A model generated the notes under the pieces. It was not told the DNA's origin, did not search any database, and was given only the letters and a program-made list of their open reading frames with translations. From positions 27,729 to 91,728 of IMG/VR virus record IMGVR_UViG_3300028196_000006: DNA of 64,000 bases; one strand, written 5' to 3'. The position numbers and the translations under genes were made by a program. This DNA is from a virus. Positions 3-16,800 of this stretch are shown piece after piece. How positions within the stretch are numbered: the stretch's first letter is position 1; every line of letters begins with the position of its first letter.

Positions 3-560
3 GTCCAGCCATTTGGAAGAAGTGCTCATCCTGAAAATTTAACTGAAAAACAGATGAAAGAAGACAAACAGCCAGACATCGCAGATGTTACTGGTAGAAG
101 TATAGAACTAAAAAATGTTTGGAGCATTGTAAGAAAACTATCTAAAAAGTATGGAGTTATGATGATGAGTGAATTCCCATTGGAATTTAAAAAACACATG
201 TCGTCTCCCGTGGCAACACCAATGAATGTACACATAAGAATATGGATGGCTGTCATAAAACAAGCAAATCACTTTGTTGGTTGTGACTCGGTTGGACAAC
301 ACATTGCATATGCATTCAACGGAACTTCCACAGTATTAATAGGTTCTACATATCCCGTAAACACATCATTTCCTGATTCAGATAATGTTGACATTATTGA
401 CCTTGGATTAGAAGATAGAGTATATTCGCCTATAAGAATCACTTCAGATGAGTTCAGTGACAGAACAAACGAAGGGATTATGGCTATGGATGATCAATCA
501 GAAGACAAAGTTATCAAGTCTGTAGAAAAGATGCTTAAACACAGTAAAAACAAGCAGTAA
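3..560 (+). CDS. GT9/heptosyltransferase-like GT-B glycosyltransferase (5' truncated by window edge)
   Basis: Frame is open from nt 3 (VQPFGRSAHPE...). HFVGCDSVGQHIAYAF...VLIGST resembles the GT9 motif G-x-D-S-G-x-x-H-L-A-x-A. Confidence 0.6.
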   Translation, partial: VQPFGRSAHPENLTEKQMKEDKQPDIADVTGRSIELKNVWSIVRKLSKKYGVMMMSEFPLEFKKHMSSPVATPMNVHIRIWMAVIKQANHFVGCDSVGQHIAYAFNGTSTVLIGSTYPVNTSFPDSDNVDIIDLGLEDRVYSPIRITSDEFSDRTNEGIMAMDDQSEDKVIKSVEKMLKHSKNKQ

Positions 561-599
561 TACCCAAAATACAGTAATAATACAATAGTTCTAGATTAG

Positions 600-606
600 G
601 TAAATA
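600..606 (+). promoter_or_regulatory. T4-type late promoter-like (GTAAATA) with AAGGA RBS before ATG 630
   Basis: Variant of the T4 late consensus TATAAATA in an intergenic gap. Confidence 0.5.
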
Positions 607-629
607 CACTATAATAAGGATTATTCTAT

Positions 630-1064
630 ATGTTTGATGTATCAAGATTTTTTGGAAAAGGTGACAGAAATACTCTGTTAATGAAGAACGGGTTAAACCT
701 GTCTTACAATGGTCCATATTCAGTAGTTGAAGAAGGGTTGATTTTAGACCAATGGCATGTGAATACGTTCGCAACAGCAGAATACACAATCAGTGTGGAT
801 TACGACACAAACAATAAAGAAGTTTTAAAAGTGCTTGTATCAGCAAGTCCAAATCAAAGCAGTCTATCAATATATGGTAGATCAAATCTAGGCAATAAAT
901 TAATCAAGATCGATAGTGAAGTTAACAATTCATATGTTAGAATCAAAATAAATCCAGAAGATAAAAGTGCCACAGAGAAATATACTGGTTCTAAAATTAT
1001 TTTTGGTGCAACATATTTTGCTACACTGAATGCTTTAGTTGGAGGCTCACAAGTAACAGAATAA
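630..1064 (+). CDS. hypothetical protein, probable virion structural protein
   Basis: 144-aa beta-rich ORF with RBS in the structural block. Confidence 0.55.
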   Translation: MFDVSRFFGKGDRNTLLMKNGLNLSYNGPYSVVEEGLILDQWHVNTFATAEYTISVDYDTNNKEVLKVLVSASPNQSSLSIYGRSNLGNKLIKIDSEVNNSYVRIKINPEDKSATEKYTGSKIIFGATYFATLNALVGGSQVTE

Positions 1065-1083
1065 TAAACATGGATATAGCACA

Positions 1084-2946
1084 ATGGCAGTAGTTTTTAA
1101 ACCTTTTGAAACAGATTACGGATATTCATCACCAGGATTCACGGTTGATGTAAACGGAAATGTCACAGTACGTACTATCACAAATACATACACTCCTCCA
1201 GTTATTCCACCTGCACCAGATTTTAACATAAATGAAACTGCGGGTGAATTTACAATTTTAAACAAAGGAGTTGCAGTTGCCGGAGATAATCCAGTTATTA
1301 CTGTAGAAAGAGGAACAACTTATACATTTGTTATAGATACATCCAGTCTTGCTTTTAACATTTACAAACCAGATGTTGCTAATACTGCCATTCCAGGACA
1401 GTTATATAATGAAGGGTTATCTCATACCAACACAGTTACAGGATTAAATTTACAATCAAGCACGTTAACTTTTCCTCAGACTTGGGAACAAGAGCAAACA
1501 GGGTACAATAGAACTGCTCAAGTAGTAGTACCTATCACAACAGGTACACCACTAGAAGGTAAAAAAATTCCAGTTGTAATTTCATTACATGATAAAGGAT
1601 TTACTCAAGCAAACGGTATTACAAATGTAAACTTTATCTCAGACAAAATTTTAATTGCTCCACAAGGATACAGCAATGAATGGAATGTGGGTTATCAAAC
1701 GTCAAAAGCAGATGACATTGCGTTAATTGATTCTATAATTTCTAGTTTTAGTCAATACGACAATGTGGACACAAGAGATATCACAATAATAGGGTATGGT
1801 AATGGAGCACAATTGGCATTACAATATACAAACTATTCACAAAATGCATCAGTGAAAAATATTATTACATTTAATGGATTATTAAATAGTGATCAATACC
1901 TTTCAACAGATCATACTTTTTACAATTACACATTAGATCCTCAAAACCAAGACAATTCAACTGTTATAAATTGGACAAGTGTCACACCACTAGGTAGTAA
2001 AAATATATTAATGTTTAATGGTAAAGATGATTTACAATTTCTTTTCAATGGTGGAACTATCGATGGACAAGAATTTTACAGTGCAGAAGATACTGTGTAT
2101 GGAATGGCTCAAGCAGATAGCACAATTGAAACTAAACTACTAGCAGGAACCACAGAAGCAGATGGAAGCCTAAGTTATTCTTATGATAATAATTCAATAA
2201 GAATGTATGCTTTCACAGGAGTTGCCAGCAATTTTACAACATATCAAAACTCTATTAGACAAAGAATTAACACATCTATTGCTACAAGCTCATATTTAAA
2301 TATTCCAGTTGCAACAACTTTAACAGAAGCAGAAGCTCAAGGAAAACAATCAGGAACGTTAACTTATGCTGTTCCTATTGATGCTCCAGATTCAATTTTT
2401 TATGCAGACTCAGATGGTACTCCTTATGGTACACTTACTGTGGCCCAGCCAAGTATTATTGGAGCAGGTGTTTTCAGTTCGATATTAGATACTGGCGATT
2501 TATTAGCAGAAGGCGTCAATGCAGAAATAAGATTAAAACCTACTGGAACAGGCACAGTCACTATAAATCCTGCCACAGTAGGAACAATCACCAACATGAA
2601 CATCAATGCACAAAATTTATCAACCAGTGGTCAGGTTAGTTTAACACCCAATGCTGACGTAACATTGAGTCCACAAGCAGGTGGAACGCTCACAGTAAGA
2701 CCAACAGACGTTGGTGTTGTAGACAATGTTACAATAGGGTCTGTAATACCAGGAAATGGAACCTTTTCGACATTGAATTCTTCGCAAGGAACGTTAAATA
2801 ACACTACAATAGGATTAACATCTGCAACGTCGGCGGCATTTACACAAGCAACCGTGACAAACAATCCGACAAGTGCAAATGATGTTACTAAAAAGCAGTA
2901 TGTCGATAACACAGCCACAGTGTTAGCGATAGCATTAGGAGTATAG
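1084..2946 (+). CDS. virion fibre-like protein with cupredoxin-like domain interrupted by a degenerate PHB-depolymerase/LpqC-type alpha/beta-hydrolase domain
   Basis: NPVITVERGTTYTF...SGTLTYAVPIDAPDSIFY flanks PVVISLHD...APQG..NEWN...DDIALI...IIGYGNGA. C-terminal NNTTIG repeats and DVTKKQYVD...LAIALG are typical of phage fibre proteins. Confidence 0.65.
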   Translation: MAVVFKPFETDYGYSSPGFTVDVNGNVTVRTITNTYTPPVIPPAPDFNINETAGEFTILNKGVAVAGDNPVITVERGTTYTFVIDTSSLAFNIYKPDVANTAIPGQLYNEGLSHTNTVTGLNLQSSTLTFPQTWEQEQTGYNRTAQVVVPITTGTPLEGKKIPVVISLHDKGFTQANGITNVNFISDKILIAPQGYSNEWNVGYQTSKADDIALIDSIISSFSQYDNVDTRDITIIGYGNGAQLALQYTNYSQNASVKNIITFNGLLNSDQYLSTDHTFYNYTLDPQNQDNSTVINWTSVTPLGSKNILMFNGKDDLQFLFNGGTIDGQEFYSAEDTVYGMAQADSTIETKLLAGTTEADGSLSYSYDNNSIRMYAFTGVASNFTTYQNSIRQRINTSIATSSYLNIPVATTLTEAEAQGKQSGTLTYAVPIDAPDSIFYADSDGTPYGTLTVAQPSIIGAGVFSSILDTGDLLAEGVNAEIRLKPTGTGTVTINPATVGTITNMNINAQNLSTSGQVSLTPNADVTLSPQAGGTLTVRPTDVGVVDNVTIGSVIPGNGTFSTLNSSQGTLNNTTIGLTSATSAAFTQATVTNNPTSANDVTKKQYVDNTATVLAIALGV

Positions 2947-2952
2947 AAAAGA

Positions 2953-5900
2953 ATGGCAAAAAAACGTATTAACACATACAAATTTACACCAGGAATACCA
3001 CAATCTGGAAACCTTTATCCCAATGCATGGGCACAAATCAATGCCAACAAAGAATGGTTAAAAGATGAATCCAATGCTTTCTTAGATTTTAAAATTACTG
3101 AAGACACAGCGGCAAATTTATATCCAAATGCAACATTAAGATATCTTAACAACAGAGAATATGTAAAAGCAGAAGTGGCGGCATGGGTGGCTGTACAAGT
3201 TGCTGGAAACATTGCACCGTTTGCCGGTTACACTGCCACAGCAACACAAATTAAAAATGATTTAGAAAAAGTTTTACAATCAGCATATCTTGATATGAGA
3301 TATGGTGGTAATGAAAATATTAGAACACAATCACAAACTTATTATGTAGACGGAGTACTTCAACTGGCATCTGCTGGTGAACCTGAATTAGCATATTGGA
3401 CAAAAGCCAAACAAATTATAGATTTATATATTTTCACAGGATTAGCATACGGCACAATTAATGGAGATGGATTATCACAAAACTCCACAGGATCAAATGC
3501 AGAAACAAATGGTAAAACATCATTTGCGGCAAACATGGCTGTGATCGATAATGTTGTGGATAACGGCATTTTAAATTTACCAGCACTATCAAGTTCCGTG
3601 TATGCGTTTGCCAATTTTACTTATGACAGTGCTCTATGTGAAAGAGACATGGGCTATAACATTGATGGTATATTAACAGACATAAGATATGGTGGAAATC
3701 AACAATCAAGATTTAATGCATCAACTTATTGGGTTGGTACAGTATCAGTTTTGAGTGGTGACAAACAACCTGAATTACAGGTAAAAAATGAAATAAAAAA
3801 TATCATTAATAATTATGTGATACCAGGTGTTGCTTTTACGTCAAAACAATCACCGGTGGTAACACAACAAACAATATTAGGTACACCAGGTGAAGCAGGA
3901 GCCACTGCAAGAGTGACTACTTTGTTTGGAATAATTACAGATGTAATTGAAAACGGATTAGATAATTTACCAACACAGATCAACAATGGAATTTCAAGTG
4001 TAAAAATTCCTGAAAGAGTGGAATTAGCAGAACTATTATTGATCACAAATGCTACATCGAATGCAGTTTTATACACATTCAATGATCCAGCAAAAGGCGC
4101 CACAACTTTTTACAGAAGAGAATTTACTACAAACACATCAAACCCAACAGCATTTGTTGATCCAGATTTTCCTAAAGCATTTCATGGCAATGACACAATC
4201 ACAACAATATTTTTAAATGCAGATACATCTGCAGATGATGTAACAGACCAATTACAAATTTTTGTTGAAGATGATGAAATAAGAACTCGTCCATATGACT
4301 TTGGAACAGATGCAATTGAAAGAATGAGAGTTGCACAACCTGAGTCAATGCTTGACGCTGACTTTGAATATGGTCTTCAGCCAACCAAGTGGCAAGCAAT
4401 TGCGACACAAAGAGGTTATCCTTCAATTTATGAAGTTCCAGGAACTGACTATGATTTAGCGTCAGTGGCATCAGATGCTTCAGCAGGAACATCAGGTATT
4501 GGTTCATCTTTGATCACAATAACAACAATTGGACCACATGGTTTTGAGCCTGGACAACCGTTTACAATAACAGGATTTGATAACTCAGTTGCAGGTGCAA
4601 GTAGAGCCGCAGGTTCGTTTGTGGTTAACACAGTGCCATCATCAACAGTTTTTAACTATTATGGAAAAGCAAAAGTTGGAACAGTAAATCCTACAACAAT
4701 TTCTACAAATTTCACTCAGTTGAGAAAAGGTGATTTTTACACAGGTGCATCAATTGGATTTCCGTCATTCAGTATACAATCAAATGGATCATCAGGAAAT
4801 TTTGTAACCAGTTTAGCAACACTATCAGGTTCTACAATTTTACCGTACACAGGTGTTCAACCTGAAATAGGAGCACCACTTACAGGAACAGGAATTCAGA
4901 CAGGTACACAGATTACAGCAGTTAATGGAACTGGTGGAGCATTAGCATCTCCCACAGTGACAGGAGATTATTCATCAGGTGCAACATCAATTACTGTGGC
5001 AGATTCTGCAGGAATTATTCAAAACTCTGTGATTGACAGAGGTGACGGATTTGCAGTAACAATTATCAATGTTGTAGGAAACGAATTAACATTGAGTGCA
5101 CCATTAAATCAAAACTTGATTGGTGATGTTACTCAGTACACAAATTTAGCAGGTGTAAATTACACTCCAGCAGGACAGTTGGGAAGATTCGACATATTCA
5201 GAGTTGGTGGAGCATACTCTGTATCATTAGTGACTAATGGACAAGTAGGTACAGGACAAGATTATGCTGTAGGTGATGTTGTTGTTGTAAGTGGTACTAT
5301 TTTAGGCGGAGCAACACCAGCCAATGATGCTTTTGTAACTGTAGAATCAGTAGACACTGGCGGAGAAATTTTAACAGCATCCATCACAGGTACATCATTC
5401 ACAGGCGAAGGCACAGCATCAGCAGTGTCACCAGTGTTCCAAGGTGGTGCAGGAACAGGTGCTCAAATAAATGTAACAAAAAATGCATCAACATACACAG
5501 TGGCATTGAACAGTCCTTCATACACAGACGTGGCTACATCAGCATACGCAGGAGGATCTGGTATTGGTGCAATTTTTGATATAGATGTAGACGGAGCGAC
5601 ATACACTGTAACAGTTGACACAGCAGGAACAGGATACATTGCCAACGATGTTATAAGAATAGCAGGTTCTACATTTGGTGGAACAGGCACAAATAATTTA
5701 GACATCAGAGTAACTGCTGTAGGCGGTTCAGGAGAAATTCAAACAATCAATGTGGCAGGAACAGCACCAGATCAAACGGTGAATTATGTTTCACCAACAT
5801 ACACAACAGCAAGTGCTGGAGGTGTAACAGCAAACTTCACAGTAACTAGAACAGGCACGGCATACTCTGCTGTGGTAACAACAATTGGTTCAGGATATTC

Positions 5901-8900
5901 AGGGGCAGAAACTCTTGTGTTTGCAGGAACACAACTTGGCGGAGCAACACCAGCCAATGATGCAACATTAACTATTGGATCTGTTGATGGTAATGGTGGA
6001 ATTTTAACTTTCACAATAGCAGGAACATCAGTAAACACACAAACATATCCAAATCAAAACACAGGTTCAAACATTGTAGGATCAAATGCTAGTTTTGATG
6101 TGGCAATTTCAGGAACTGGTTACACAGTAACTTTAAACACTGCTGGTGACAACTACGGTGTTGGACAAACACTTACAATTCTAGGAACAAGTTTAGGTGG
6201 AGCAACACCAACCAATGATGTGTCAATCGCAATTGATACAGTTACAGGCGCAGGTGCCAGTGCAATTGCAACAATTACAGCAACAGGTACAGCGGCATTG
6301 GAAGGTACATCAGGATACGCAATAGGAGATCAATTGTTTGTTAGTGGATCTGACTTAGGCGGAGCAACACCAACCAATGATGCATATGTGTCGATTGCAA
6401 CAGTTAATGGCAATGGCGGAATTACAAGTTTAGCAATCAGTGGAACACGCACAGATGCCAATGTAGATTACACATCAGTAACTTGGAGCACTACAGGCTC
6501 AGGAACAGGTGCAGTGATTGACATTAACAGAACAGGTACAACATACACAGCAACATTCACAAACACTGGTGCCTCATTTGCAGGATCAGACACAATTACA
6601 GTTTTAGGAACAGCACTGGGTGGATTAACGCCAGCCAATGATGTAACAATCGCAGTTGATACAGTTACAGGAGGTGCAATAGCCACGTACACTGTGACAG
6701 GAACAGCAGTGAATACTCAAACATTCACAAATGTAAACAAATCAAACAGAACACCTTCAGGATTATTAATGAACGTGACACTGAATTCAGGTACATACAC
6801 ATTGGCAGTTGCTAATGGTGGTAGCGGACATGCACCAGACCAAGTATTCAAAATATTAGGTACATCGGTTTTTGGATCTTCTCCTACAAATGATTTAACA
6901 TTCACAATTGCAGGTATAGATGCTGTGTCAACAGGTTCAGTTACTTCTGTATCAGGAGCAACAGGAACAGCAAACACAGGAACAGGTAATGCATTAAATG
7001 TTGCAGGCACAAACAGAACTCCAATAGGAGTTGGTGCTCAATTCAGTATCACAAGAACTAATGATACAGATTCATCAACTGCTTACACAGAATGCCAAGT
7101 GATTCAAGAAGGTTCAGACTATGGTGTGGGTGATAAAGTTATAATTTCAGGATCAAGTTTAGGCGGAACAACACCAGCCAATGACGTAACTGTTCAAATA
7201 CAATCAGTATCTTCATTTGGTGGTGCATTATCTAATACACACTCAGGAACAGCAGTTGGAGGAACAGGATTAAGTGTTTATTCATCAGTAACCATTTCAG
7301 ATCCAGTTTCACAAGCAATTCCATTAAGTTCAACAATTTCTTATTCAGCATTGGCAACAATGAGAGTTAATTTCACAACACCACATGGACTTGTTCCAGG
7401 TAATGCATTCTTGGTTGTAATACAATCAGATGACGGTTCAAACAATCACATACTTGCATCAGGACCGTTCTTGGCAACTTCTATTCCATCTACAACAAGT
7501 TTAACATATCAAGTGAGATCACCAGGCGCTATTACAGATGCTGGTTGGCAAGGATCGATATATGGTAGACCAGATTCATTCTTTGTACACAGACCATTCG
7601 ATGGTGGTGTTCAATTAGGAACAGGTGGTCCGGCACACGGTGCTCAAGCAATACGTCAATCTAAAAAATATATTAGATATCAATCAGGTAAAGGTTGTAT
7701 GTACACAACTGGTGCTCTATTTGCTCCAAGTTATGACATTCTAAACATTACTGCTGATGGAATTAATGCAGGTTCAACAATATCAGTAACAACAGATGAT
7801 GTTGACCACAACTTACAAGTTGGTGCTGTTGTGAGATTAGTAGGTGTAGCAACATCAGGGTATGATGGACAATACACAATAACGGCAGTTACAAATGAAA
7901 GAACATTCACAGTGATTGCACAAATCACTTTGGGAGGAACAACTCCTGAATTTACAGATCAACCACAAGTATCATTGTATCAATGGAATGGTGCAACAGT
8001 TAGATCAGGTATATTTGATGATCAAAACGGAATTTTCTGGGAGTATGATGGACAAAACACAAATGCTGTACAAAGAACTGCCACAAGACAATTGGCTGGT
8101 ACAGTCACAGTTACACCTAATTCAAATGCTGTAACAGGTGTGGGAACAAGATTTAGAGAACAAATTAAAGCAGGTGACAGAGTTGTAGTCAGAGGTATGA
8201 CACACGTGGTATCAAGTGTTACAGATAACACAACGATGAGTATTACTCCAGATTACAGAGGTGTTAACATATCAGCAGGTGTTAAAATGTGTGCTGTGGT
8301 TGATAAAAAAGCAAAACAATCAGAATTTAACAAAGACGTGTTGGACGGAACAGGACCAAGTGGATACAACTGGGACGTGTCTAAAATGCAGATGATTGGG
8401 ATACAATTTTCATGGTATGGTGCTGGGTTTATTGACTGGATGACTAGAGGTCAAAAAGGTAATTTCATATTTGTTCACAGAATGAGAAACTCAAACGTAA
8501 ACACAGAAGCATTTATGAGAACAGGTAACCAACCTGTGCGTTATGAAGTAACCAACGAAGGACCAGGTGCAAAATTAATTGAAAATATGGATTCAACACA
8601 AACCACACTTACTGTGGAAGATGCTTCATTCTTACCGCAAACAGGTGGTACAGTTTATATTGATAACGAAGTTATAACATTTACAGGTATTACAGGCGAC
8701 ACATTAACAGGATGTACAAGAGCGGCACAACTTACAAACTTTGCGGCAGGTGCCACAAGAAATTATTCAGCAGGTGCGGCGGCGGCTCACTTCAGAAACA
8801 CTGGAGTTGTGTTGATATCCAACACAGCATCTCCGATCATATCACACTGGGGTTCAGCATATCTAACAGATGGTAATTTTGATGAAGACAGAGGATACCT

Positions 8901-9987
8901 ATTCAGTTACTCAGGTACTGGATTAAATCTATCCACAATTAGACAAACAGTATTCTTAATGAGACTGGCTCCTTCAGTATCCAATGCCTTAACTGGTGAT
9001 TTGGGAGACAGAGACTTATTGAACAGAGCCCAGTTGCTACTAGATGGTATTGAAATTACTACAGAACCAATCTCAGGTGGTGGTACACAAGGTCAGTTGG
9101 TTATTCAGGGAATTATTAACCCACAAAACTATCCAATTGATCCAGCAGATATAGGTTGGACAGGACTGCAAGGAACAGCACAAGGTGGACAACCAAGTTT
9201 TGCGGAGATTGCTCCGGGTGGTTCAGTTAACTGGAACGGTGGTGCTAGTACTACACAAGCAACAGCAACCACTCAAGCAGAAATGACATCTACATCCAAT
9301 CACTGGTTTAACCTAGGTGGTAACAGAGATTATGCTTACTTCTTGGAAGCAGAATGGGAAAACAAAGGACATGTGGTGGGTATGCGTGTTACTTCTGCTC
9401 AATTCCCTTCCAACACTGTGGTAACACAGATTCAGAATAATGGATCTTACTATTTTGTGAGATTTTCAAATAGACACACAGGTATATCGGGCGGACAGGC
9501 TGTAACTTTTGCATACGGTGGTGATCAACTAAACAGTAACTTCTTGTTCTTTGATCCAACATCATGGGAAGCCGCTGGTGCTGTGAGTGGTACAGAAGTT
9601 GACACAGCAACAACAACTGAATTTCCACCAGGATCAACTGTGCAAAGTGTACAGGCTAAAACTGTATTTGGATCAACTGAATATTATAGAGTTGATTTTA
9701 ACCAATCATTTACTGGCACAATTGCCGCGGCAAGTGACGTATCATTTTCTTTTGGACAACCTCCTTATGCACAACCTGGAGAAACTATTTTCTCTTTCGT
9801 TGCACAACCTGGAGAAAGAGCGACATTAGGATTAGACAAAATCAAAGCATTAACCAACACCACTTTGGGTGGTAGAGGTACGTTCCCGAATGGTCCAGAC
9901 GTGTTGGCCATCAACGTATTTAGAACTGCTGGTACAGGTAATGTATCATCTACAATTACGTTACGTTGGTCTGAAGCACAGGCTTAA
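2953..9987 (+). CDS. giant tail-fibre/virion structural protein (2344 aa, Gly/Thr/Ser-rich repeats)
   Basis: N-terminal helical repeats (DMRYGGN, CERDMGY...DIRYGGN), about 7 GGATPxND modules, and a C-terminal domain (IDWMTRG, HRMRNSN) like those of marine myophage structural proteins. Confidence 0.75.
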   Translation: MAKKRINTYKFTPGIPQSGNLYPNAWAQINANKEWLKDESNAFLDFKITEDTAANLYPNATLRYLNNREYVKAEVAAWVAVQVAGNIAPFAGYTATATQIKNDLEKVLQSAYLDMRYGGNENIRTQSQTYYVDGVLQLASAGEPELAYWTKAKQIIDLYIFTGLAYGTINGDGLSQNSTGSNAETNGKTSFAANMAVIDNVVDNGILNLPALSSSVYAFANFTYDSALCERDMGYNIDGILTDIRYGGNQQSRFNASTYWVGTVSVLSGDKQPELQVKNEIKNIINNYVIPGVAFTSKQSPVVTQQTILGTPGEAGATARVTTLFGIITDVIENGLDNLPTQINNGISSVKIPERVELAELLLITNATSNAVLYTFNDPAKGATTFYRREFTTNTSNPTAFVDPDFPKAFHGNDTITTIFLNADTSADDVTDQLQIFVEDDEIRTRPYDFGTDAIERMRVAQPESMLDADFEYGLQPTKWQAIATQRGYPSIYEVPGTDYDLASVASDASAGTSGIGSSLITITTIGPHGFEPGQPFTITGFDNSVAGASRAAGSFVVNTVPSSTVFNYYGKAKVGTVNPTTISTNFTQLRKGDFYTGASIGFPSFSIQSNGSSGNFVTSLATLSGSTILPYTGVQPEIGAPLTGTGIQTGTQITAVNGTGGALASPTVTGDYSSGATSITVADSAGIIQNSVIDRGDGFAVTIINVVGNELTLSAPLNQNLIGDVTQYTNLAGVNYTPAGQLGRFDIFRVGGAYSVSLVTNGQVGTGQDYAVGDVVVVSGTILGGATPANDAFVTVESVDTGGEILTASITGTSFTGEGTASAVSPVFQGGAGTGAQINVTKNASTYTVALNSPSYTDVATSAYAGGSGIGAIFDIDVDGATYTVTVDTAGTGYIANDVIRIAGSTFGGTGTNNLDIRVTAVGGSGEIQTINVAGTAPDQTVNYVSPTYTTASAGGVTANFTVTRTGTAYSAVVTTIGSGYSGAETLVFAGTQLGGATPANDATLTIGSVDGNGGILTFTIAGTSVNTQTYPNQNTGSNIVGSNASFDVAISGTGYTVTLNTAGDNYGVGQTLTILGTSLGGATPTNDVSIAIDTVTGAGASAIATITATGTAALEGTSGYAIGDQLFVSGSDLGGATPTNDAYVSIATVNGNGGITSLAISGTRTDANVDYTSVTWSTTGSGTGAVIDINRTGTTYTATFTNTGASFAGSDTITVLGTALGGLTPANDVTIAVDTVTGGAIATYTVTGTAVNTQTFTNVNKSNRTPSGLLMNVTLNSGTYTLAVANGGSGHAPDQVFKILGTSVFGSSPTNDLTFTIAGIDAVSTGSVTSVSGATGTANTGTGNALNVAGTNRTPIGVGAQFSITRTNDTDSSTAYTECQVIQEGSDYGVGDKVIISGSSLGGTTPANDVTVQIQSVSSFGGALSNTHSGTAVGGTGLSVYSSVTISDPVSQAIPLSSTISYSALATMRVNFTTPHGLVPGNAFLVVIQSDDGSNNHILASGPFLATSIPSTTSLTYQVRSPGAITDAGWQGSIYGRPDSFFVHRPFDGGVQLGTGGPAHGAQAIRQSKKYIRYQSGKGCMYTTGALFAPSYDILNITADGINAGSTISVTTDDVDHNLQVGAVVRLVGVATSGYDGQYTITAVTNERTFTVIAQITLGGTTPEFTDQPQVSLYQWNGATVRSGIFDDQNGIFWEYDGQNTNAVQRTATRQLAGTVTVTPNSNAVTGVGTRFREQIKAGDRVVVRGMTHVVSSVTDNTTMSITPDYRGVNISAGVKMCAVVDKKAKQSEFNKDVLDGTGPSGYNWDVSKMQMIGIQFSWYGAGFIDWMTRGQKGNFIFVHRMRNSNVNTEAFMRTGNQPVRYEVTNEGPGAKLIENMDSTQTTLTVEDASFLPQTGGTVYIDNEVITFTGITGDTLTGCTRAAQLTNFAAGATRNYSAGAAAAHFRNTGVVLISNTASPIISHWGSAYLTDGNFDEDRGYLFSYSGTGLNLSTIRQTVFLMRLAPSVSNALTGDLGDRDLLNRAQLLLDGIEITTEPISGGGTQGQLVIQGIINPQNYPIDPADIGWTGLQGTAQGGQPSFAEIAPGGSVNWNGGASTTQATATTQAEMTSTSNHWFNLGGNRDYAYFLEAEWENKGHVVGMRVTSAQFPSNTVVTQIQNNGSYYFVRFSNRHTGISGGQAVTFAYGGDQLNSNFLFFDPTSWEAAGAVSGTEVDTATTTEFPPGSTVQSVQAKTVFGSTEYYRVDFNQSFTGTIAAASDVSFSFGQPPYAQPGETIFSFVAQPGERATLGLDKIKALTNTTLGGRGTFPNGPDVLAINVFRTAGTGNVSSTITLRWSEAQA
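5305..7185 (+). repeat. intragenic repeat modules (LGGATPANDA)
   Basis: GGCGGAGCAACACCAGCCAATGATGC is identical at 5305-5330 and 5938-5963, with 1 mismatch at 6358-6383; degenerate copies near 6195, 6620, 6875 and 7160. Confidence 0.85.
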
Positions 9988-10109
9988 TGGACCAACAGAT
10001 CAAACATATATGCGAGACGTGTGGGTGTGAACAACACTGCAAAAAATCGTGTGGAGAATGTCTAGATTGTCCAGACTGTGGTTGTAAGGAATGTATTAAC
10101 AAAGACTGA
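9987..10109 (+). CDS. 40-aa Cys-rich metallothionein-like peptide (below the ORF-track cutoff)
   Basis: Hand translation MDQQIKHICETCGCEQHCKKSCGECLDCPDCGCKECINKD*: 10 Cys, 2 His. Its ATG overlaps the fibre stop (TAATG) and it ends 4 nt before the next ATG. Confidence 0.7.
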   Translation: MDQQIKHICETCGCEQHCKKSCGECLDCPDCGCKECINKD

Positions 10110-10113
10110 TAAG

Positions 10114-10701
10114 ATGAATTATAATAGGCTTCGTGTACTGGAAAGAGAAAACCCACACAAAGAACCTGAACGATGTTTTGTTTTACAAAAATTAATTAAA
10201 AAACACAATTTAAAAAAAGGCGCTGAACTAGGAGTTAGAAGCGGCGAACTTTATTATTTTTTATTATCTCATTGTCCTGAACTTACCCTGATTGGTGTAG
10301 ATTTGTACGAAAGTCAACCAAATGGAAGTACTGATCCTCAACGAAAAAGAACATATGATCAACCTCATATGGGGTTTAGTTATGATCACTCACTGTATTA
10401 CAATTTCATAAAAGAGTTACAAAATGAATTTGGAACAAGAGCTCAATTTATAAAAGATTGGACTTCAAATGCGTCTTTATTAATTGAAGATAATTCATTA
10501 GATTTTGTGTTTTTAGATGCTGATCATGGATTTGATGGATGTTCGCAAGATATTGAAAAATGGACACCAAAAGTTAAATCTGGTGGATTTATAACAGGAC
10601 ACGACTTCTGGTTGTCAGGAGTAAAAAAAGCAGTACAAAAATATTTTGGCAACGATTATAAGAAACACCCAGATCACGTCTGGATACATCAAAAAAAATA
10701 A
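10114..10701 (+). CDS. class I SAM-dependent methyltransferase (Methyltransf_24-like)
   Basis: GAELGVRSG, IGVDLY, LDFVFLDADH, GGFITGHD motifs. Start moved to ATG 10114. Confidence 0.8.
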   Translation: MNYNRLRVLERENPHKEPERCFVLQKLIKKHNLKKGAELGVRSGELYYFLLSHCPELTLIGVDLYESQPNGSTDPQRKRTYDQPHMGFSYDHSLYYNFIKELQNEFGTRAQFIKDWTSNASLLIEDNSLDFVFLDADHGFDGCSQDIEKWTPKVKSGGFITGHDFWLSGVKKAVQKYFGNDYKKHPDHVWIHQKK

Positions 10702-10702
10702 A

Positions 10703-11080
10703 TTATTTTTCTTCTATTTTTTGTGAATCGCCAGGAATGATTCTATAATTGTCTTCTGGATCGTCAGCAGTGCTCACTTCAGTGATGCTACCTCGATCAG
10801 TTAAACATTGAACTTGATGTGGCATTAGAGGTAAATTTCTCCATGTTTCACCTTCTTTAAGTTCTTTTGTTAACAGAGATGCAGTTTGAGTATCTATCCA
10901 ACTTAAAAGGAATTTTCCTTCGTTCACAAACCAAGTTTCATCTTTGGTTTTGTGAAAATGCATTGAGAATTTAGCACCTTTGCGTTCAAACACCATGATT
11001 TTTCCACAGTACTTGTCATTGGAAGCCCAAATTAATTCGTATCCCCAACCTTTATCTACTTTTCCTTCTTTATTAATCAT
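10703..11080 (-). CDS. cupin protein (mannose-6-phosphate isomerase-like)
   Basis: KGWGYELIW...SMHFHKTKDETW...PHQV...EVST cupin motifs. Confidence 0.75.
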   Translation of the reverse strand: MINKEGKVDKGWGYELIWASNDKYCGKIMVFERKGAKFSMHFHKTKDETWFVNEGKFLLSWIDTQTASLLTKELKEGETWRNLPLMPHQVQCLTDRGSITEVSTADDPEDNYRIIPGDSQKIEEK

Positions 11081-11888
11081 TTAAATATTGCTCAACTGTT
11101 TTATAATTTATTGTAACATTTTTATTTAATTCAGTTAAATCTGCACAGGTGTAAGACTGATATTGTCCTGTGAGTTGTTGAGGCATTGGTATTGTTTGTA
11201 TTTTGGCATTGTATTTTTTAGCCACAGAATCTGCTACACTTTGAAATGATGTTGCTGTGCCTGTGCCAACATTGTAAATACCGCTTACATCGTGTTGTAG
11301 CATTTGACAGTGTACGTTACACACATCATCCACACACACAAAATCTCTAAGATATTGATCACTATTTTCGAATAATTTTATTATGCCACTTTCTTTTGCT
11401 TGTTTTGAAAATTTAGTTACTGGAGATGCTTGATCTCCTTTGTGTTCTTCATGATCTCCATACACATTAAAATATCTAAATCCTTGAACTAATATTTTAA
11501 ATTCTCCCATGGCTTGTTGAACAAATCTATCAAACAAATACTTGCTCCAAGCATAGGGTGATTGAGGATATATTGGTCCGTTTTCTACAAAACTGTTTGT
11601 GTTACCATACACACTGGCAGAACTAGAATATTGAAAATTTACTCCCATTGTGTCACACATTTGTAATAATTTTAAACTGTATTCATAGTTTTGATCCATG
11701 ATTAATTCTACATTTCTTTCTGTTGTAGAACTAATTGCTCCAAGGTGTATTACCCAATCATACATACTGGGATCAGGAAAACTATTCATTGCATATTCAA
11801 ATTTTGTTACTTCGTGGTTCATACTATCTAGATGTTTGCACAAATTTTTTCCTATAAATCCTTCAGCACCCGTTACACAAATTTTCAT
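11073..11888 (-). CDS. hldD: ADP-L-glycero-D-manno-heptose 6-epimerase
   Basis: VTGAEGFIG, HLGAISSTTE, YSSSASVYG, YAWSK, FRYFNVYG.HEEHKG. Confidence 0.88.
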   Translation of the reverse strand: MKICVTGAEGFIGKNLCKHLDSMNHEVTKFEYAMNSFPDPSMYDWVIHLGAISSTTERNVELIMDQNYEYSLKLLQMCDTMGVNFQYSSSASVYGNTNSFVENGPIYPQSPYAWSKYLFDRFVQQAMGEFKILVQGFRYFNVYGDHEEHKGDQASPVTKFSKQAKESGIIKLFENSDQYLRDFVCVDDVCNVHCQMLQHDVSGIYNVGTGTATSFQSVADSVAKKYNAKIQTIPMPQQLTGQYQSYTCADLTELNKNVTINYKTVEQYLND

Positions 11889-12487
11889 ATCTTACACCAT
11901 AGTTTATTAATTGATTCTGATCCTTGTGGCGAAATAGGTTTTAATAATTGATTATTCCAATCAGCAACGAAATTAATATTAATATTAACTCTACATCTTT
12001 CATCAGAACAAGTACTTCCGGTGTGTTCCATGTGGCTGGGGAATATTACCATGGAGTTAGCAACACTTGGAACTTTATCGCCATCTTTAAATTCTGTAAA
12101 ACCATTGTTGGTGTTACAATAAAATATTGCTGTATAACTCAGTGGCACACTTACGTCACAGTGCATGCCGTGAGTCACAATTGTTTCTCTTCCAGGTATA
12201 TTGTTTGCTTTTACTCTTAAAAAAGTGTGAGGTTGAAGCACAGCAAAAATAGGAAAACACATGTTCCATATTTCAGGACTTGTGGCTATGTTACTGTTTT
12301 CGTGAAATTTATGCACAAACTGTATTTGATATTTTTCTTCTGTATTGGATTGATGTGAATGTACAACATGGTTTTGATAAAACCAAGGAAATTTATCACT
12401 CATGATTATATCCGTTAACTGTTTAAAATGTTCATCACTTAAAACATTTTTTAATGTTATTTTGTTATTTTTTATCTGTTGTTCCAT
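11885..12487 (-). CDS. 2OG-Fe(II) oxygenase-like protein
   Basis: HxD (HCD), YCNTNNGFT, distal His (HTG) and R-x-N-I-N-I-N; a common marine phage oxygenase type. Confidence 0.7.
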   Translation of the reverse strand: MEQQIKNNKITLKNVLSDEHFKQLTDIIMSDKFPWFYQNHVVHSHQSNTEEKYQIQFVHKFHENSNIATSPEIWNMCFPIFAVLQPHTFLRVKANNIPGRETIVTHGMHCDVSVPLSYTAIFYCNTNNGFTEFKDGDKVPSVANSMVIFPSHMEHTGSTCSDERCRVNININFVADWNNQLLKPISPQGSESINKLWCKI

Positions 12488-13724
12488 TAACTTTGTTTAA
12501 TAAATTTGTTGTTGAAAAACCTTTGACAGTTGGAAAAATTTTCACATCTGCCATTTCATTACCTACAGTGGTTTCCACACTGTAATCTCCACCTTTAACT
12601 ATAACATCAGGTGTATATTTTTTAATTGATTCTAGTGGTGTATCTTCATTGAACACAACAACCTGATCTACCCAAGGCAACTCCATTAATTGTTGTTGTC
12701 TTGCTGACATACTATTGTAAGGACGGTCATTGCCTTTTAGTCTTTTAACACTATCATCTGAATTAATACCTACAATCAATTTGTCTCCTTGATTTTTGGC
12801 AAATTTTAATAATTCTAAATGTCCTTGATGTAAAATATCAAAAACTCCATTAGTCCAAACTATTGTGTCTTCTATATCACTAATCTTAACAACAGTGACG
12901 CCTCTGTGTTGTACAACACTACTTGCACCTTTTAAAGCAAGAGAACAAGCATCTGTCATACTATGTCCTTGTTCAACATATTTTACAATAATTGCTAACA
13001 CTGTATCTCCTGCACCACTGACGTCTGCCAATTCAACAGCGTCACCAGTGATGTGTTTGTATTCATTATTGCCAACAACATGAATGCCGTTGCCTCCATC
13101 AGTTACAACCAACCAATTCCAATTGAATTGAGTTCTGTATTGATCAGCATTTTCAGGATTAAATTTTCCAAACCATTGTTCATACTCTTTCATATTAGGC
13201 TTAACCAGATATGCATCTTTATAGCAGTCAGGATTTTGTTTGGGATCTACATAAACTCTTTTTACCAAATGAACAATATCACTCACAAGGGTGTTAGTAA
13301 TTACACCTTTGTTGTAATCACTCACTAAAACAACATCATCCTTTTGTAAATTTTTTAATAAATTTTGTTTGGGCTGAGATTCGGTGTATGGTTCTTCACG
13401 ATCCAGTCTTAATAGGTGCTGTCCGTCTGGTCCAATCATACGTGTTTTCACAGTGCTGGTTACAGCATCATTACTGATGTATGATGTGATATTGTTTTTA
13501 AGCAGTATTTCTTGTATTCTGTGACCTGGGGCATCGTTGCCCACCGAACTGTAAAGATGTGTGTCTACGCCGAGATTTGATAGGTTTAAAGCGAGATTTC
13601 CTGCTCCTCCTATGTTGTAATTTCGAGAGTTTTCTTTCAGTACAAGAGTGGATGCTTCTGGAGATACTTTGGTACAATCACCCTGTACCCAAACGTCCAA
13701 CATTACATCTCCAATTATTTTCAT
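12465..13724 (-). CDS. hldE: bifunctional heptose-7-phosphate kinase / heptose-1-phosphate adenylyltransferase
   Basis: IGDVMLD..SPEA, GGAGN, SDYNKG, VDPK, DVSGAGDT (PfkB kinase) plus TNGVFDILHQGH...GINSDDSVKRLKG...KGGDY...GFSTT (nucleotidyltransferase). Confidence 0.92.
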   Translation of the reverse strand: MKIIGDVMLDVWVQGDCTKVSPEASTLVLKENSRNYNIGGAGNLALNLSNLGVDTHLYSSVGNDAPGHRIQEILLKNNITSYISNDAVTSTVKTRMIGPDGQHLLRLDREEPYTESQPKQNLLKNLQKDDVVLVSDYNKGVITNTLVSDIVHLVKRVYVDPKQNPDCYKDAYLVKPNMKEYEQWFGKFNPENADQYRTQFNWNWLVVTDGGNGIHVVGNNEYKHITGDAVELADVSGAGDTVLAIIVKYVEQGHSMTDACSLALKGASSVVQHRGVTVVKISDIEDTIVWTNGVFDILHQGHLELLKFAKNQGDKLIVGINSDDSVKRLKGNDRPYNSMSARQQQLMELPWVDQVVVFNEDTPLESIKKYTPDVIVKGGDYSVETTVGNEMADVKIFPTVKGFSTTNLLNKVNGTTDKK

Positions 13725-14155
13725 TTGATCAATTTTAACATTTTAAACACAGTATCCAATTTAATTTGATTCGTTTTATTTTGGAATGTTTTACGTAATC
13801 CTTGGTGTAATGGCTTGGGCCAGTTACCAAAAGTTACCCATGCATATCCATCATGTTCTGTGTTTAATATTGGAATAAATTCTTTTTCTACCACACACAA
13901 ATAAGTATGATACAAAAAATTTTCATCATTGCTGACGAATGTTTCCATTGGAATAGTTTTTTTAATTGATTGTTCGCCTATTTCTTCTTTAATTTCTCTT
14001 TGAAGACCGTCCCATAAATTTTTATCTGAAGTTGTAGTACCACCGACCAATCCCCAAACATTATTTTGTTTACTTTGAGTTCTGTGTAGTAATAAAAATC
14101 TTTTTGTATCTAGTGTATAGAAGAGTGCTCCACACCCTACAATTTTACTGTTCAT
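13721..14155 (-). CDS. NUDIX hydrolase
   Basis: WGLVGG...GLQREIKEEIG Nudix box, LNTEHDGYAW. Start moved to MNSKIV. Confidence 0.85.
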   Translation of the reverse strand: MNSKIVGCGALFYTLDTKRFLLLHRTQSKQNNVWGLVGGTTTSDKNLWDGLQREIKEEIGEQSIKKTIPMETFVSNDENFLYHTYLCVVEKEFIPILNTEHDGYAWVTFGNWPKPLHQGLRKTFQNKTNQIKLDTVFKMLKLIK

Positions 14156-14171
14156 ACAATTAATTATGTGA

Positions 14172-15599
14172 CTAAGAGATCTTCCAAGTGCCTTTACGAT
14201 ATTCACCTTCGAAAGACAACAACCATTCTGTACCATTCCATTTATACTGTACACCAGTGTTTAAATTGGTAACAAATGATTCTGTGAAATTGGCAACGGT
14301 GCTAGGATTAGCACTGGCATCAAAAATGACTTGCCAATTTGTTCCGTTCCATTCCACAATGTCATTGGCTCCTGCAACTAAATCTATATTGCTGTCACCT
14401 TTCCATGCATCTGCTCCGTCTTCGTTGTTGGAATCGCCAATGCCTTTCAATAATAGTAATCTTTTACCATTTTGTTTCACACTGGATGGATCAAACGATG
14501 CAGGATCAACAATAAAATCTACTGAACCACTGGTCGTAACTGGTCCAACAATAACAGTGTCAGTTGGAATTGTGTCTTCATCCCAATCAATTAAAAGTTG
14601 GTGTGGATTTGCTTCATTCACTGCCACAGTACCAACCACTTGAGCATCAATACCTTGTCTATTTAAATAAATTTTGCTCAATCCATTTTTATAGTTTGGT
14701 ATGGTTAACACATTGCCTGTCCATACTTCTCCACCTATAACACCTTTAGTTATAATTTGAGCAACACTGTTCAACACATATATGTCAACATTGATACCTG
14801 TTGTGCCTTGCACAGAATCTGTATCTTTTCTTATTGCTCGTCCTTTATCATCTAACTTGATGCTGTTTTCATATCCATCTTGATATGCTTTTAATTCAGG
14901 CATTGTTTGACTTAGATCTATATTACCTGATTGTTCGTTAAAAATACTTGTAATAATATGAGTAATCACTCCTAATTTTTTTACTTTTGTTGGTGGTGAT
15001 ATGAATATTGGTGTCGTGAATCCCAGTGTGGCAACATCAACTTCTGATTCTGTACCTAATGGAATTGTTCTTGATGAAAAATTAATATTTGACAATTCGA
15101 CAACACTTAAACTGGTCCAGTCAATATAGTTGTCTGTGGTTTGAATTTCAAGTGATGGATTAAACAACATCATTATTTGTTCCATTATTTGTAACTTTTG
15201 TTCTGTGTTTGATGTCCAAATATCTGCATTCATTGTTAATGTGTAAGGCGTTGGCATCAATCTTTCAACAGTGACATTTTTGCCTTGTGTGTTTAGATAT
15301 TCATTATTGTTGGCATCGTATGCTCTTTCTCTAACGTGTACTTTAGAAATAAAAGATGCATCTGCTAATCTGTTTCTATCCATTTCTAATCCAGTAACAT
15401 ATATTCCCATTCTTGGCACTGAAGGTAATTTGTTTTCTGAATTATCTCTTATGATATGTCCAACTTGTCTGCTGATATCTCCGTACATAACCGGTATAGT
15501 TTTTAATCCATCACTACCGTCTTTGTAAGAAAAATTACTCAGTAATCTAATAATTTGAGTAATGTATCTTCTAATCTGTCCGTCGTAAAAATGTTGCAT
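14172..15599 (-). CDS. tail sheath stabiliser/terminator (T4 gp15-like) with C-terminal extension
   Basis: FYDGQIRRY, IPVMYG, PRMG, MPTPYTLT...QIMEQI..LFNP pattern of the gp15 family. Confidence 0.7.
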   Translation of the reverse strand: MQHFYDGQIRRYITQIIRLLSNFSYKDGSDGLKTIPVMYGDISRQVGHIIRDNSENKLPSVPRMGIYVTGLEMDRNRLADASFISKVHVRERAYDANNNEYLNTQGKNVTVERLMPTPYTLTMNADIWTSNTEQKLQIMEQIMMLFNPSLEIQTTDNYIDWTSLSVVELSNINFSSRTIPLGTESEVDVATLGFTTPIFISPPTKVKKLGVITHIITSIFNEQSGNIDLSQTMPELKAYQDGYENSIKLDDKGRAIRKDTDSVQGTTGINVDIYVLNSVAQIITKGVIGGEVWTGNVLTIPNYKNGLSKIYLNRQGIDAQVVGTVAVNEANPHQLLIDWDEDTIPTDTVIVGPVTTSGSVDFIVDPASFDPSSVKQNGKRLLLLKGIGDSNNEDGADAWKGDSNIDLVAGANDIVEWNGTNWQVIFDASANPSTVANFTESFVTNLNTGVQYKWNGTEWLLSFEGEYRKGTWKIS

Positions 15600-16756
15600 T
15601 AACTATCCGCCTTTGGTTTCAGTGCTGTAGATAAACTTTGTCTTTCAGTTACTGATTCACCAGCAATTGTTGAAGTTTTAGTATTATTAACAAATGTTCC
15701 TTTTTGAGTACTTCTTGTGTCAGTGTTAGTTAGTGTCATACGCACATTGTCTTCCATTTTCACCCAACGTCCGCCATCGCTTCTAAATAATCTATTAGGT
15801 AAGAAATCTGTGCGTAAAAAATAATCTCCTTTGTCTGACTGTGCTGGAAAACTTATACCAAAGCCAAACTGTTCACCATTGGGTGCAATTCCATCTCCTA
15901 ACAAATATCCATTGTAACCTTCTTTAGACGGAGTTTGGGTTACCCTGTCTGCTAAAGTATTTTGTGTTGATGTGTCCAATGTCGATGTATCAGTTGTGAC
16001 TAATTCTGGTTTTCCTTGACTATCTACTTGTAAAGTATAAAAATGTGCTATGTCGTATCCTGACTTGGGTGCATCTGCTTCTGCTTGTTGAATCACAGCA
16101 TTATTAATTTGCATTTCTTGTTCATATGTAGACAGTACGTCTCTTAATGTTTGTCCTGTACCTGCTCCTGCATCCTTGTCTAATATCTCTTTAAATTCTT
16201 GTGAGTCGTATATCTGTTTTAATTTAACTCTGTAAAGGTGTGGATACCAAGTTTGACTAAATCCTTCTGCCGCTCTACTAATATCTTCCACAACATAAAA
16301 TCTTTTAAGTGCTACATTGAAATCATTCAGTGCATATTCGTCTTTCAGATGAGGTAATTCAAACACATCACCCGGCATAACTTTTCTGCCCAATGTTTTA
16401 ACACTGCTGGTGATAGGAATTGTCATAAACAATGTGTCGTTTTGTAAGAACAATCCAAATTGACTCATGTCAAAGTCAATATCTTGCACATTGTATATGC
16501 CTCTTAAACTGTACACATCTGTGTCGTATTTTCTGTCTCTATTTTCTAGAAATAACATATCTTGTATGTTGGTTTCTTTCACAGCATTGTATCTTGGCTG
16601 GCTTGGAGTGGCATCTGCTTCGTCTGTATTCTTAGGTCCTAGGTATTTGTGTACAAAAACATCGGTACCGCCCACAGTGAACATTTCCACCACGGTGTTG
16701 TCTAAGAATGTGTAGTCATTTCCCTTTTCTGGTTTATAAAGACTTAATCTTGGCAT
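15599..16756 (-). CDS. neck protein (T4 gp14-like)
   Basis: FTVGGTDVFVH, LFLENRDRKY, MSQFGLF, PGDVFELPHL; divergent from gp13. Start MPRLSL. Confidence 0.65.
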   Translation of the reverse strand: MPRLSLYKPEKGNDYTFLDNTVVEMFTVGGTDVFVHKYLGPKNTDEADATPSQPRYNAVKETNIQDMLFLENRDRKYDTDVYSLRGIYNVQDIDFDMSQFGLFLQNDTLFMTIPITSSVKTLGRKVMPGDVFELPHLKDEYALNDFNVALKRFYVVEDISRAAEGFSQTWYPHLYRVKLKQIYDSQEFKEILDKDAGAGTGQTLRDVLSTYEQEMQINNAVIQQAEADAPKSGYDIAHFYTLQVDSQGKPELVTTDTSTLDTSTQNTLADRVTQTPSKEGYNGYLLGDGIAPNGEQFGFGISFPAQSDKGDYFLRTDFLPNRLFRSDGGRWVKMEDNVRMTLTNTDTRSTQKGTFVNNTKTSTIAGESVTERQSLSTALKPKADS

Positions 16757-16762
16757 ATACAT

Positions 16763-16784
16763 ATATTTATCGGACGATAAATAT
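16763..16784. promoter_or_regulatory. back-to-back late promoters forming a perfect inverted repeat
   Basis: ATATTTATCG-GA-CGATAAATAT has ATAAATA on both strands between divergent gp14 and gp13. Confidence 0.7.
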
Positions 16785-16800
16785 GTATAAGGAAAACTGT

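Follow-up and report, generated by a model that had tools for sequence, protein, structure and literature searches.

A late-type ADP-heptose operon and GT9-like transferase genes beside the fibre genes of a marine jumbo myovirus: a candidate system for virion decoration

Heptose-pathway genes of marine phages have been described as lipopolysaccharide (LPS) genes. In particular, Sullivan et al. (2010) listed T4-GC 304, 305, 307 and 308 (nucleotidyltransferase, kinase, cupin and epimerase) as 'LPS genes' of P-SSM2, S-SM2 and S-SSM7 and left their functionality open (PMC3037559), and a 2020 genome announcement reported heptose-related LPS synthesis genes (PMC7378029). The window analysed here is a stretch of 64,000 nucleotides (nt) of an uncultured marine phage, bases 27729-91728 of the 91.7-kb IMG/VR virus contig IMGVR_UViG_3300028196_000006; it holds genes for ADP-heptose synthesis in one operon with neck genes and, at its 5′ edge, a GT9-like transferase gene followed by fibre genes. 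An earlier note, made from the letters of the window, had proposed that these genes form a virion heptosylation system. Decoration of the virion is the best-supported reading of the module, though a tentative one.

The cyanomyovirus cassette T4-GC 302-308 (S-SSM7, S-CAM1, S-CAM3 and P-SSM2) shares with this locus a phrog_8954 GT9-like gene, a Nol-like carbamoyltransferase, a heptose kinase, a nucleotidyltransferase, a cupin and an epimerase, and the gene set is in this sense already published as cyanophage 'LPS genes'. Unlike in the cyanophages, a single gene of the bacterial HldE type here combines the kinase with the nucleotidyltransferase, a gp14-gp15-NUDIX operon has taken up the pathway genes, the GT9-like gene is duplicated, the small HAD phosphatase lies outside the cassette, and the carrier is a ~350-kb jumbo phage of the PA5oct/Atu_ph07 type. 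What is new is the lineage that carries the genes, the presence of a fused HldE within the neck operon, the second copy of the GT9-like gene and an Arg-for-Asp variant of the transferase.

Among bacterial systems, WaaC and WaaF (CAZy GT9) share with the phage proteins the GT9 fold (Z 19-22) and a C-terminal DSxGxxH-type donor motif, and the Pseudomonas aeruginosa core, whose heptose II is carbamoylated, shares the combination of heptose with a carbamoyltransferase. Unlike WaaC and WaaF, the phage proteins have Arg for the catalytic Asp13, and no Kdo-lipid A acceptor (Kdo, 3-deoxy-D-manno-oct-2-ulosonic acid) is expected in picocyanobacteria. Chloroviruses and giant viruses encode the glycosylation of their own virions. 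In mycobacteriophages, virion glycosylation is established (Freeman et al. 2023, cited in PMC12619734). In all of these viral systems, to which the present candidate is likened, structural proteins are glycosylated in the cytoplasm by soluble glycosyltransferases that the virus encodes, with hexose-type donors from the host or from other pathways. None of them is known to use ADP-heptose or carbamoylation, and a literature search found no paper proposing heptosylation of phage particles. The bacterial autotransporter heptosyltransferases (BAHT) TibC and AAH, with TibA and AIDA-I, resemble the phage arrangement in placing a GT9-related domain beside a repetitive surface-protein gene, and their use of ADP-heptose is known; the phage proteins differ in having no N-terminal beta-barrel, no four-Cys iron finger and an Arg in place of Asp110 (PMC4358343).

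ADP-heptose enzymes in a late-type neck operon

Seven minus-strand genes follow one another with overlaps of 1-83 nt between neighbours, in the order that the earlier note had given. They encode a gp14-position neck or virion structural protein (15599..16762; 387 amino acids, aa; phrog_11591 at 1.4e-91), a gp15-like tail sheath stabiliser (14172..15599; PF16724 at 2.7e-24, phrog_11196 at 1.8e-76), a NUDIX hydrolase (13721..14254; Pfam NUDIX at 1e-13), an HldE-like bifunctional heptose-7-phosphate kinase/heptose-1-phosphate adenylyltransferase (12465..13724; 419 aa), a 2-oxoglutarate (2OG)-Fe(II) oxygenase-like protein (11885..12487; 200 aa, HxD...H...R motif, phrog_274 at 6e-44), a compact HldD-like ADP-heptose 6-epimerase (11073..11888; 271 aa) and a metal-binding cupin (10703..11080; 125 aa, HxH..E..H motif, Cupin_2). 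A terminator-like hairpin directly past the cupin stop codon (10665..10687, minus strand), a consensus match alone, may mark the operon's end.

The two heptose enzymes are identified by profiles and motifs together. The HldE-like protein combines a PfkB kinase domain (PF00294 at 1.9e-29) with a cytidylyltransferase-like domain (PF01467 at 1.1e-19), and its by far top-scoring families are NF008454 (309 bits, cut-off 521), TIGR02198 (223, cut-off 345) and TIGR02199 (149, cut-off 181.5), all of them below the equivalog cut-offs. Among solved structures it comes closest to the heptose kinase HldA (4e84) and the adenylyltransferase HldC (5x9q), and its GAGD, HxGH and FSTT motifs are intact, so that both catalytic signatures are present. 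The HldD-like protein scores 247 bits against TIGR02197 (cut-off 274.6), with GalE as runner-up at 84 bits; this compact short-chain dehydrogenase/reductase (SDR) keeps the GxxGxxG and YxxxK motifs and the FRYFNVYG..HKG stretch, and does without ~35 residues of the N-terminal part of the TIGR02197 model. Judged by these profiles and signatures, the HldE-like protein is a real, intact ADP-heptose enzyme and the HldD-like protein probably one too, as the earlier note had proposed.

The operon is headed by a T4-late-type motif, (G)ATAAATA, at 16764..16770 on the minus strand, 1 nt ahead of the first ATG, and the position given for it beforehand was correct. A divergent plus-strand copy (16777..16783) precedes a gp13-like neck gene (16801-17559, plus strand; phrog_211 at 1.7e-35). 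Across the 91.7-kb contig there are 20 copies, and 18 of them sit 1-44 nt 5′ of a full-length open reading frame (ORF) start, a lenient test that 31% of random positions also pass (P ~8e-8); the placement of ATAAATA is not due to chance. Promoter scans found sigma-70-like sites only at chance level, both in this operon and in the array that runs from the GT9-like genes to the fibre genes. By motif, the heptose genes belong to a late-type neck operon. RNA-library contigs of three studies span the NUDIX/HldE junction at an identity of at least 99%, and further RNA-library contigs, from the same three studies and a fourth, cover the HldD-like and 2OG-like genes; this metatranscriptome coverage is scattered, attests presence and gives no strand, level or timing, and DNA carry-over is possible. 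As a separate observation, about half of the ATAAATA copies (e.g. 16764-16770, 26235, 28940, 34323 and 43333) stop only 1-9 nt short of the start codon, a spacing that suggests late mRNAs with very short leaders or none. Of the full TATAAATA octamer, the 64 kb contain one copy, where 6.2 would be expected.

Conservation within the cassette is highest for the cupin (homologues 67-90% identical). Besides Cupin_2, its profile matches are weak ones to Lyx_isomer (D-lyxose isomerase), WbuC and mannose-6-phosphate isomerase. Its structural model (predicted local distance difference test, pLDDT, 90) best fits the cupin domain of CapF, an epimerase of sugar nucleotides in which a cupin and an SDR domain are fused, at Z 15.7, followed by KdgF at 14.7 and archaeal phosphomannose isomerases at 14.0. 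These three fold matches are nearly tied and leave its role undecided; the protein could be a partner of HldD in sugar-nucleotide epimerisation, like CapF or WbuC, or a ketol isomerase in place of GmhA.

The first and third steps of the pathway have no evident gene in the window, as the earlier note had stated, and it had suggested that gmhA and gmhB might lie elsewhere in the genome, be supplied by the host or be replaced by the cupin or the NUDIX enzyme. GmhA (SIS_2, TIGR00441) was found neither on the contig, which is 26% complete, nor in four relatives, one of them 75% complete (G039), nor in S-CAM3 or S-SSM7. A HAD phosphatase or small-HAD homologue was likewise not found on the contig; the rest-of-genome check in relatives gave a small HAD homologue in G039, 48% identical to the cyanophage protein and near the DNA polymerase gene. 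That cyanophage protein bears the GenBank label 'phosphoheptose isomerase' (S-CAM3, L005:18597-18917; S-SSM7, L006:21055-21390), is 106-111 aa long and has an N-terminal DxDGT HAD motif. As a GmhA it is ruled out by its DxDGT start, a weak HAD_PNKP match and no SIS match; it is probably a minimal HAD phosphatase, an analogue of GmhB, and the public label looks wrong. In P-TIM68 (L008), a transketolase-like gene (12768-13913) lies directly 5′ of the heptose kinase gene and could supply sedoheptulose-7-phosphate to the pathway.

The two remaining enzymes of the operon are not parts of the pathway core. The NUDIX protein is 39% identical (E 4e-37) to the NUDIX protein beside gp15 in Pseudomonas phage Paride; because it is orthologous to a gene that adjoins gp15 in PA5oct-type phages without heptose genes there, it is ruled out as a substitute for gmhB, and by this orthology it is ancestral to the neck operon of the carrier lineage. 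The 2OG-like gene is missing from the same operon in the relatives G039 and G025, and is for that reason an accessory insertion of a sublineage and not a core part; the Paride gene past NUDIX is unrelated to it. Its PHROGs family, phrog_274, is labelled 'denV' or 'DNA endonuclease V', and the protein has no Pfam Pyr_excise match, so that the label is without Pfam backing. Some relatives show variation in hldE itself: in seven relatives (G025, G027, G036, G037, G040, G047 and G050) the HldE match falls into two parts, residues 3-59 and residues 90-410, a sign of a kinase domain that is shorter or rearranged, and G004 has an in-frame TAA within hldE.

Two GT9-like transferases and a carbamoyltransferase ahead of the fibre genes

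The plus-strand array begins 5′ of the window. Its first GT9-like gene (paralogue 1) is followed by a co-directional gene for a NodU/Nol/CmcH-type O-carbamoyltransferase (L004:7482-9311), with Carbam_trans_N at 84.2 bits and Carbam_trans_C at 197.1 bits, both above the Pfam cut-offs, and phrog_1601 at 1.8e-163. A second GT9-like gene (L004:9308-10288, 326 aa) starts 421 bases before the window, which contains its C-terminal 185 aa (3..560, plus strand; phrog_8954 at 2e-60). Three structural genes follow on the same strand: a small Ig-like/beta-sandwich protein of 144 aa (Ig144, 630..1064; weak Cadherin-like and Ig_SibA matches), a Thr-rich, probably structural protein of 620 aa (1084..2946; phrog_2576, Abhydrolase_2 at 0.0027) and a repeat-containing virion structural (fibre) protein of 2344 aa (2953..9987; phrog_5838 'virion structural protein' at 4e-249). 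One copy of TATAAATA stands 5′ of the first GT9-like gene; from there through the 2344-aa gene, the array has neither another late motif nor a terminator-like site on the plus strand. Since the array has this single late motif, no terminator and gaps of at most 90 nt, the transferases are probably co-transcribed with the structural genes.

The fold of the transferases was accessible through structure and not through sequence profiles. Against Pfam GT9 (PF01075, cut-off 22 bits), paralogue 1 reaches 26.9 bits and paralogue 2 only 15.9-16.7, with ~50 C-terminal residues matched, and the family profile had no meaningful sequence match among solved structures; a fold search alone succeeded. The AlphaFold (AF2) model of paralogue 2 (pLDDT 86) matches 3tov at VIA Z 23.6 (root-mean-square deviation 3.6 over 283 residues), WaaF (1psw) at 21.7, TibC at 19.8 and WaaC at 19.0; GT9 structures span Z 18.5-23.6, and other GT-B folds reach at most 12.5. 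The modelled fold is clearly GT9, well apart from other GT-B proteins. The earlier note's assignment of ORF 3-560 to a GT9-like family therefore stands for the fold, with Z up to 23.6, and falls short in the Pfam score and in the catalytic residue.

That residue emerges from an hhalign comparison anchored on a shared hPAL motif (probability 23%), in which the invariant Arg15 lies opposite Asp13 of WaaC, the position of the catalytic base Asp110 in TibC. The C-terminal GCDSxGQH of the GT9-like proteins aligns with the WaaF donor-site NDSGLMH, and this donor motif together with the co-occurrence of HldE gives indirect backing to ADP-heptose as the donor. Further, model residues 1-325 align with TibC residues 92-399 only, so the N-terminal beta-barrel of TibC is absent, and the 326-aa protein holds three Cys in total, so there is no four-Cys iron finger. 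The analogy to TibC and Aah thus failed at every BAHT-specific feature examined (barrel, iron finger and catalytic Asp).

The linkage of these genes was counted in the best 80 related viral loci, within a 10-kb flank of the GT9-like gene, and HldE in 50 whole records. The carbamoyltransferase, Ig144 and the giant fibre are each found within 10 kb in 78 of 80 loci, and the 620-aa protein in 72 of 80. In 38 of the 50 records, HldE shares the contig with the GT9-like gene and always lies 8.9-16.2 kb downstream of it, in convergent orientation and beyond the giant fibre genes. Of the 12 records that lack HldE, 11 break off less than 8.5 kb past the GT9-like gene, which leaves HldE in 38 of 39 informative records. 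The order gp14-gp15-NUDIX-HldE-HldD-cupin is kept even by relatives whose HldE kinase part is only 32-46% identical (G039 and G025). By gene order, the transferase-fibre-pathway architecture is conserved.

The block also crosses lineages. A fibre and sugar block is common to S-CAM3, S-CAM1 and S-SSM7, and in the Kyanoviridae S-CAM3 and S-SSM7 it sits between the tail-fibre genes and gp13-15. Its proteins are 40-63% identical to those of the present contig, and the block in S-CAM3 and S-SSM7 45-63%, compared to 34-35% for the terminase of these two phages; because the block identity exceeds that of the terminase, the pattern is consistent with the fibre genes and enzymes having moved together as a unit. 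The 2344-aa fibre itself is 52% identical to virion structural proteins of S-CAM3 and S-CAM1, and 34-37% to those of S-PM2, Syn1 and S-RSM4.

What the module may decorate

On the best-supported reading, the module would be a late-expressed, wholly soluble sugar-decoration system of a marine jumbo myovirus. The HldE-like and HldD-like enzymes and the metal-binding cupin would be made from the same late operon as gp14 and gp15. Sedoheptulose-7-phosphate from host carbon would be isomerised by a host GmhA or by the cupin, and the resulting heptose phosphate would be phosphorylated, after which a small HAD phosphatase would remove the phosphate at C7; the gene of this phosphatase would lie in another part of the genome, as it does in G039 (in cyanophages it belongs to the cassette). 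Adenylylation and epimerisation would then yield ADP-heptose or a further epimer, the heptose would be transferred by the two GT9-fold proteins, and the carbamoyltransferase, whose gene lies between theirs, would O-carbamoylate it. The likeliest acceptors would be the virion proteins encoded just downstream in the same late unit (Ig144, the 620-aa protein and the 2344-aa fibre), and the particle would leave the cell with a carbamoyl-heptose coat.

A cytoplasmic virion-protein acceptor is favoured because the promoters are of late type, the genes are probably co-transcribed, the transferases invariably lie directly 5′ of three structural genes and the glycan genes include no membrane protein. 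In particular, transmembrane (TM)-like segments occur in 2 of 82 genes, the second of them marginal, and in none of the glycan genes; all glycan enzymes of the contig are predicted to be soluble. Moreover, if the host is a picocyanobacterium, ordinary remodelling of the LPS core is disfavoured, because LPS of marine Synechococcus is without heptose and Kdo (PMC4515613).

Several results weigh against decoration of the virion. An Arg occupies the catalytic-Asp position in 96 of 96 GT9-like ORFs from 78 loci, and by this residue the proteins may not be ordinary O-heptosyltransferases; they are not filed as such because the catalytic residue differs though the fold and the donor site say GT9. There is no TibC-type protein-recognition module in the GT9-like protein. 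P-TIM68 and S-T4 have no member of the GT9-like family with their heptose genes, which form part of a glycosyltransferase island close to hli and psbA; the link to the fibres is weakened because the heptose genes sit there away from structural genes. Many cyanophages, S-PM2 and Syn1 among them, encode a homologue of the giant fibre and are absent from the GT9-like and HldE matches, and synteny within one lineage may be simply inherited. The 620-aa and 2344-aa proteins contain 13-14% Thr and 21-22% Ser+Thr, compared to 10-12% Thr in the contig's remaining large structural proteins; the composition that had been called very Thr/Ser-rich is only slightly elevated, and it is ordinary for fibres. 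Finally, psbA was not found in the 75%-complete relative (267.8 kb). Overall, the proposal of a virion heptosylation system retains its enzymes, late-type operon, GT9 fold, conserved architecture and soluble enzymes, and loses the TibC analogy and the NUDIX role, with the placement in P-TIM68 and S-T4 standing against it.

The same genes could instead remodel the envelope glycans of the infected cell, the classical reading of 'LPS genes', and thereby mask receptors, block superinfection or stop progeny from sticking to debris. This is unlikely, and it is the most serious competitor: GT9 enzymes are classically LPS-core enzymes, T4-GC 304, 305, 307 and 308 carry the LPS label given by Sullivan et al. 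2010 (PMC3037559), the island of P-TIM68 and S-T4 lies far from structural genes, and the window has a large glycan-gene island of its own (three GT25, a GT8-like gene, an SDR and methyltransferases). However, no flippase, polymerase, ligase or initiating phosphoglycosyltransferase is encoded on the contig, its glycan genes are all free of TM-like segments, the canonical GT9 acceptors Kdo and heptose are absent from marine Synechococcus LPS, and a late-type promoter with neck and fibre co-transcription fits superinfection exclusion poorly.

A bolder form of virion decoration must be called doubtful. In it, the Arg-for-Asp phage GT9 would catalyse an undescribed glycosyl or glycosyl-phosphate transfer and, with the carbamoyltransferase, build a carbamoyl-heptose fibre coat, and the metal-binding cupin, which is always linked to the cassette, would replace GmhA to give a self-sufficient ADP-heptose pathway in heptose-less hosts. 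The transfer could, for example, be onto an anionic or phosphorylated acceptor; the family has an invariant Gly-rich loop and Arg.

It is improbable that the pathway leads to a soluble heptose small molecule or free oligosaccharide, with participation of the window's oxygenase, aminotransferase and amidinotransferase genes, although carbamoyltransferases of the NodU/TobZ family often tailor small molecules. HldE-like genes do occur in 16 Streptomyces phage records, and antibiotic-like biosynthetic genes are described for such phages (PMC12801897); however, the GT9-carbamoyltransferase-GT9 trio is invariably directly 5′ of structural genes, and no scaffold-forming enzyme is linked to the cassette. 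Least probable by far is that the GT9-like proteins use ADP-heptose to glycosylate phage DNA (hypermodification): phage DNA glycosyltransferases are also GT-B proteins, diverse DNA glycans are known (Pyle et al. 2024, as cited in PMC12619734) and a Gly-rich loop followed by Arg could bind phosphate, but this is disfavoured because no gene of the thymidylate-synthase or dCMP-hydroxymethylase family was found in the contig or the 75%-complete relative, and the genes lie amid fibre and neck genes under late motifs, not with replication genes.

Carbamoyl-heptose on the fibres, if real, would make this the first case of virion glycosylation with heptose, and a widespread one, as marine metagenomes hold thousands of homologues of both the transferase and the cupin. 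It would also give a function to cyanophage 'LPS genes' that have been without one since 2005-2010, and a glycan coat on receptor-binding proteins would matter for which hosts abundant ocean viruses infect, how stable their particles are and how they decay. The Arg-for-Asp variant of GT9 is of enzymological interest, and cultured carriers exist (S-CAM1, S-CAM3 and S-SSM7).

Carrier lineage and neighbouring genes

The contig has a G+C content of 32-41% and, as CheckV gives its completeness as 26%, it would come from a genome of ~350 kb. Its gene order is T4-like (gp13, a gp14-position protein, gp15, sheath, tube, terminase, a gp32-like single-stranded DNA-binding protein and UvsX). The terminase is 52% identical to that of Pseudomonas PA5oct-type jumbo phages and 34-35% to those of S-CAM3, S-SSM7 and P-TIM68, and the nearest relatives of gp15 are in Atu_ph07, Phosso and PA5oct. 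On these markers, the carrier is a PA5oct/Atu_ph07-like marine jumbo myovirus, and not a member of the Kyanoviridae or an ordinary cyanophage. The fibre genes, common almost only to Synechococcus phages, give hints of a picocyanobacterial host. A megablast search of window positions 10000-17000 against phage records gave no match.

Among 185,579 cellular species genomes, the GT9-like family occurs at only five loci (L091-L095), all of them in metagenome-assembled genomes (MAGs) of unrelated phyla, labelled Neomarinimicrobiota, Methanobacteriota, Chitinophagales and Actinomycetota. These contigs are probably jumbo-phage contigs that were mis-binned, and by this distribution the family is essentially confined to viruses. 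Two of the loci are PBPT01000016.1 (L092, 335 kb) and PBPT01000082.1 (L095); the former may be a near-complete genome of the carrier lineage.

Residues 142-276 of the 620-aa protein show weak matches to alpha/beta-hydrolases of the esterase or polyhydroxyalkanoate (PHA)-depolymerase type, and the protein may be a fibre with an enzymatic domain. A class I S-adenosylmethionine-dependent methyltransferase gene (10078..10701, plus strand; Methyltransf_24, Pfam 1.3e-11) lies between the giant fibre gene and the cupin; it is present in 3 of 80 related loci, hence accessory, and was ruled out as a core part. Co-directional genes 5′ of the first GT9-like gene encode two small fibre-related proteins, three Cys/Gly-rich paralogues and two further paralogues of 217 and 221 aa. 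The three Cys-rich genes are in tandem (L004:2083-5068) and encode 320-338 aa with ~10% Cys, 15-17% Gly and motifs such as MCCCG; they gave no Pfam match and no tblastn match in phage records, and 29-35 of 80 related loci have homologues no more than 10 kb from the GT9-like gene.

The only clear TM case on the contig is a 69-aa protein with two TM-like segments, encoded just ahead of the sheath gene (18917-19126). A second carbamoyltransferase-like gene (56646-57656) has the N-terminal (Kae1-like) domain only and adjoins a DnaB-like helicase gene. Further, positions 34336-47432 hold a second, larger glycan island of the P-SSM2/S-SSM7 'LPS cluster' type, a co-directional run behind late-type motifs at 34323 and 43333, in which the SDR is an epimerase, two of the methyltransferases are Methyltransf_24 and the three GT25 and GT8-like genes are accompanied by many other genes with no Pfam match.

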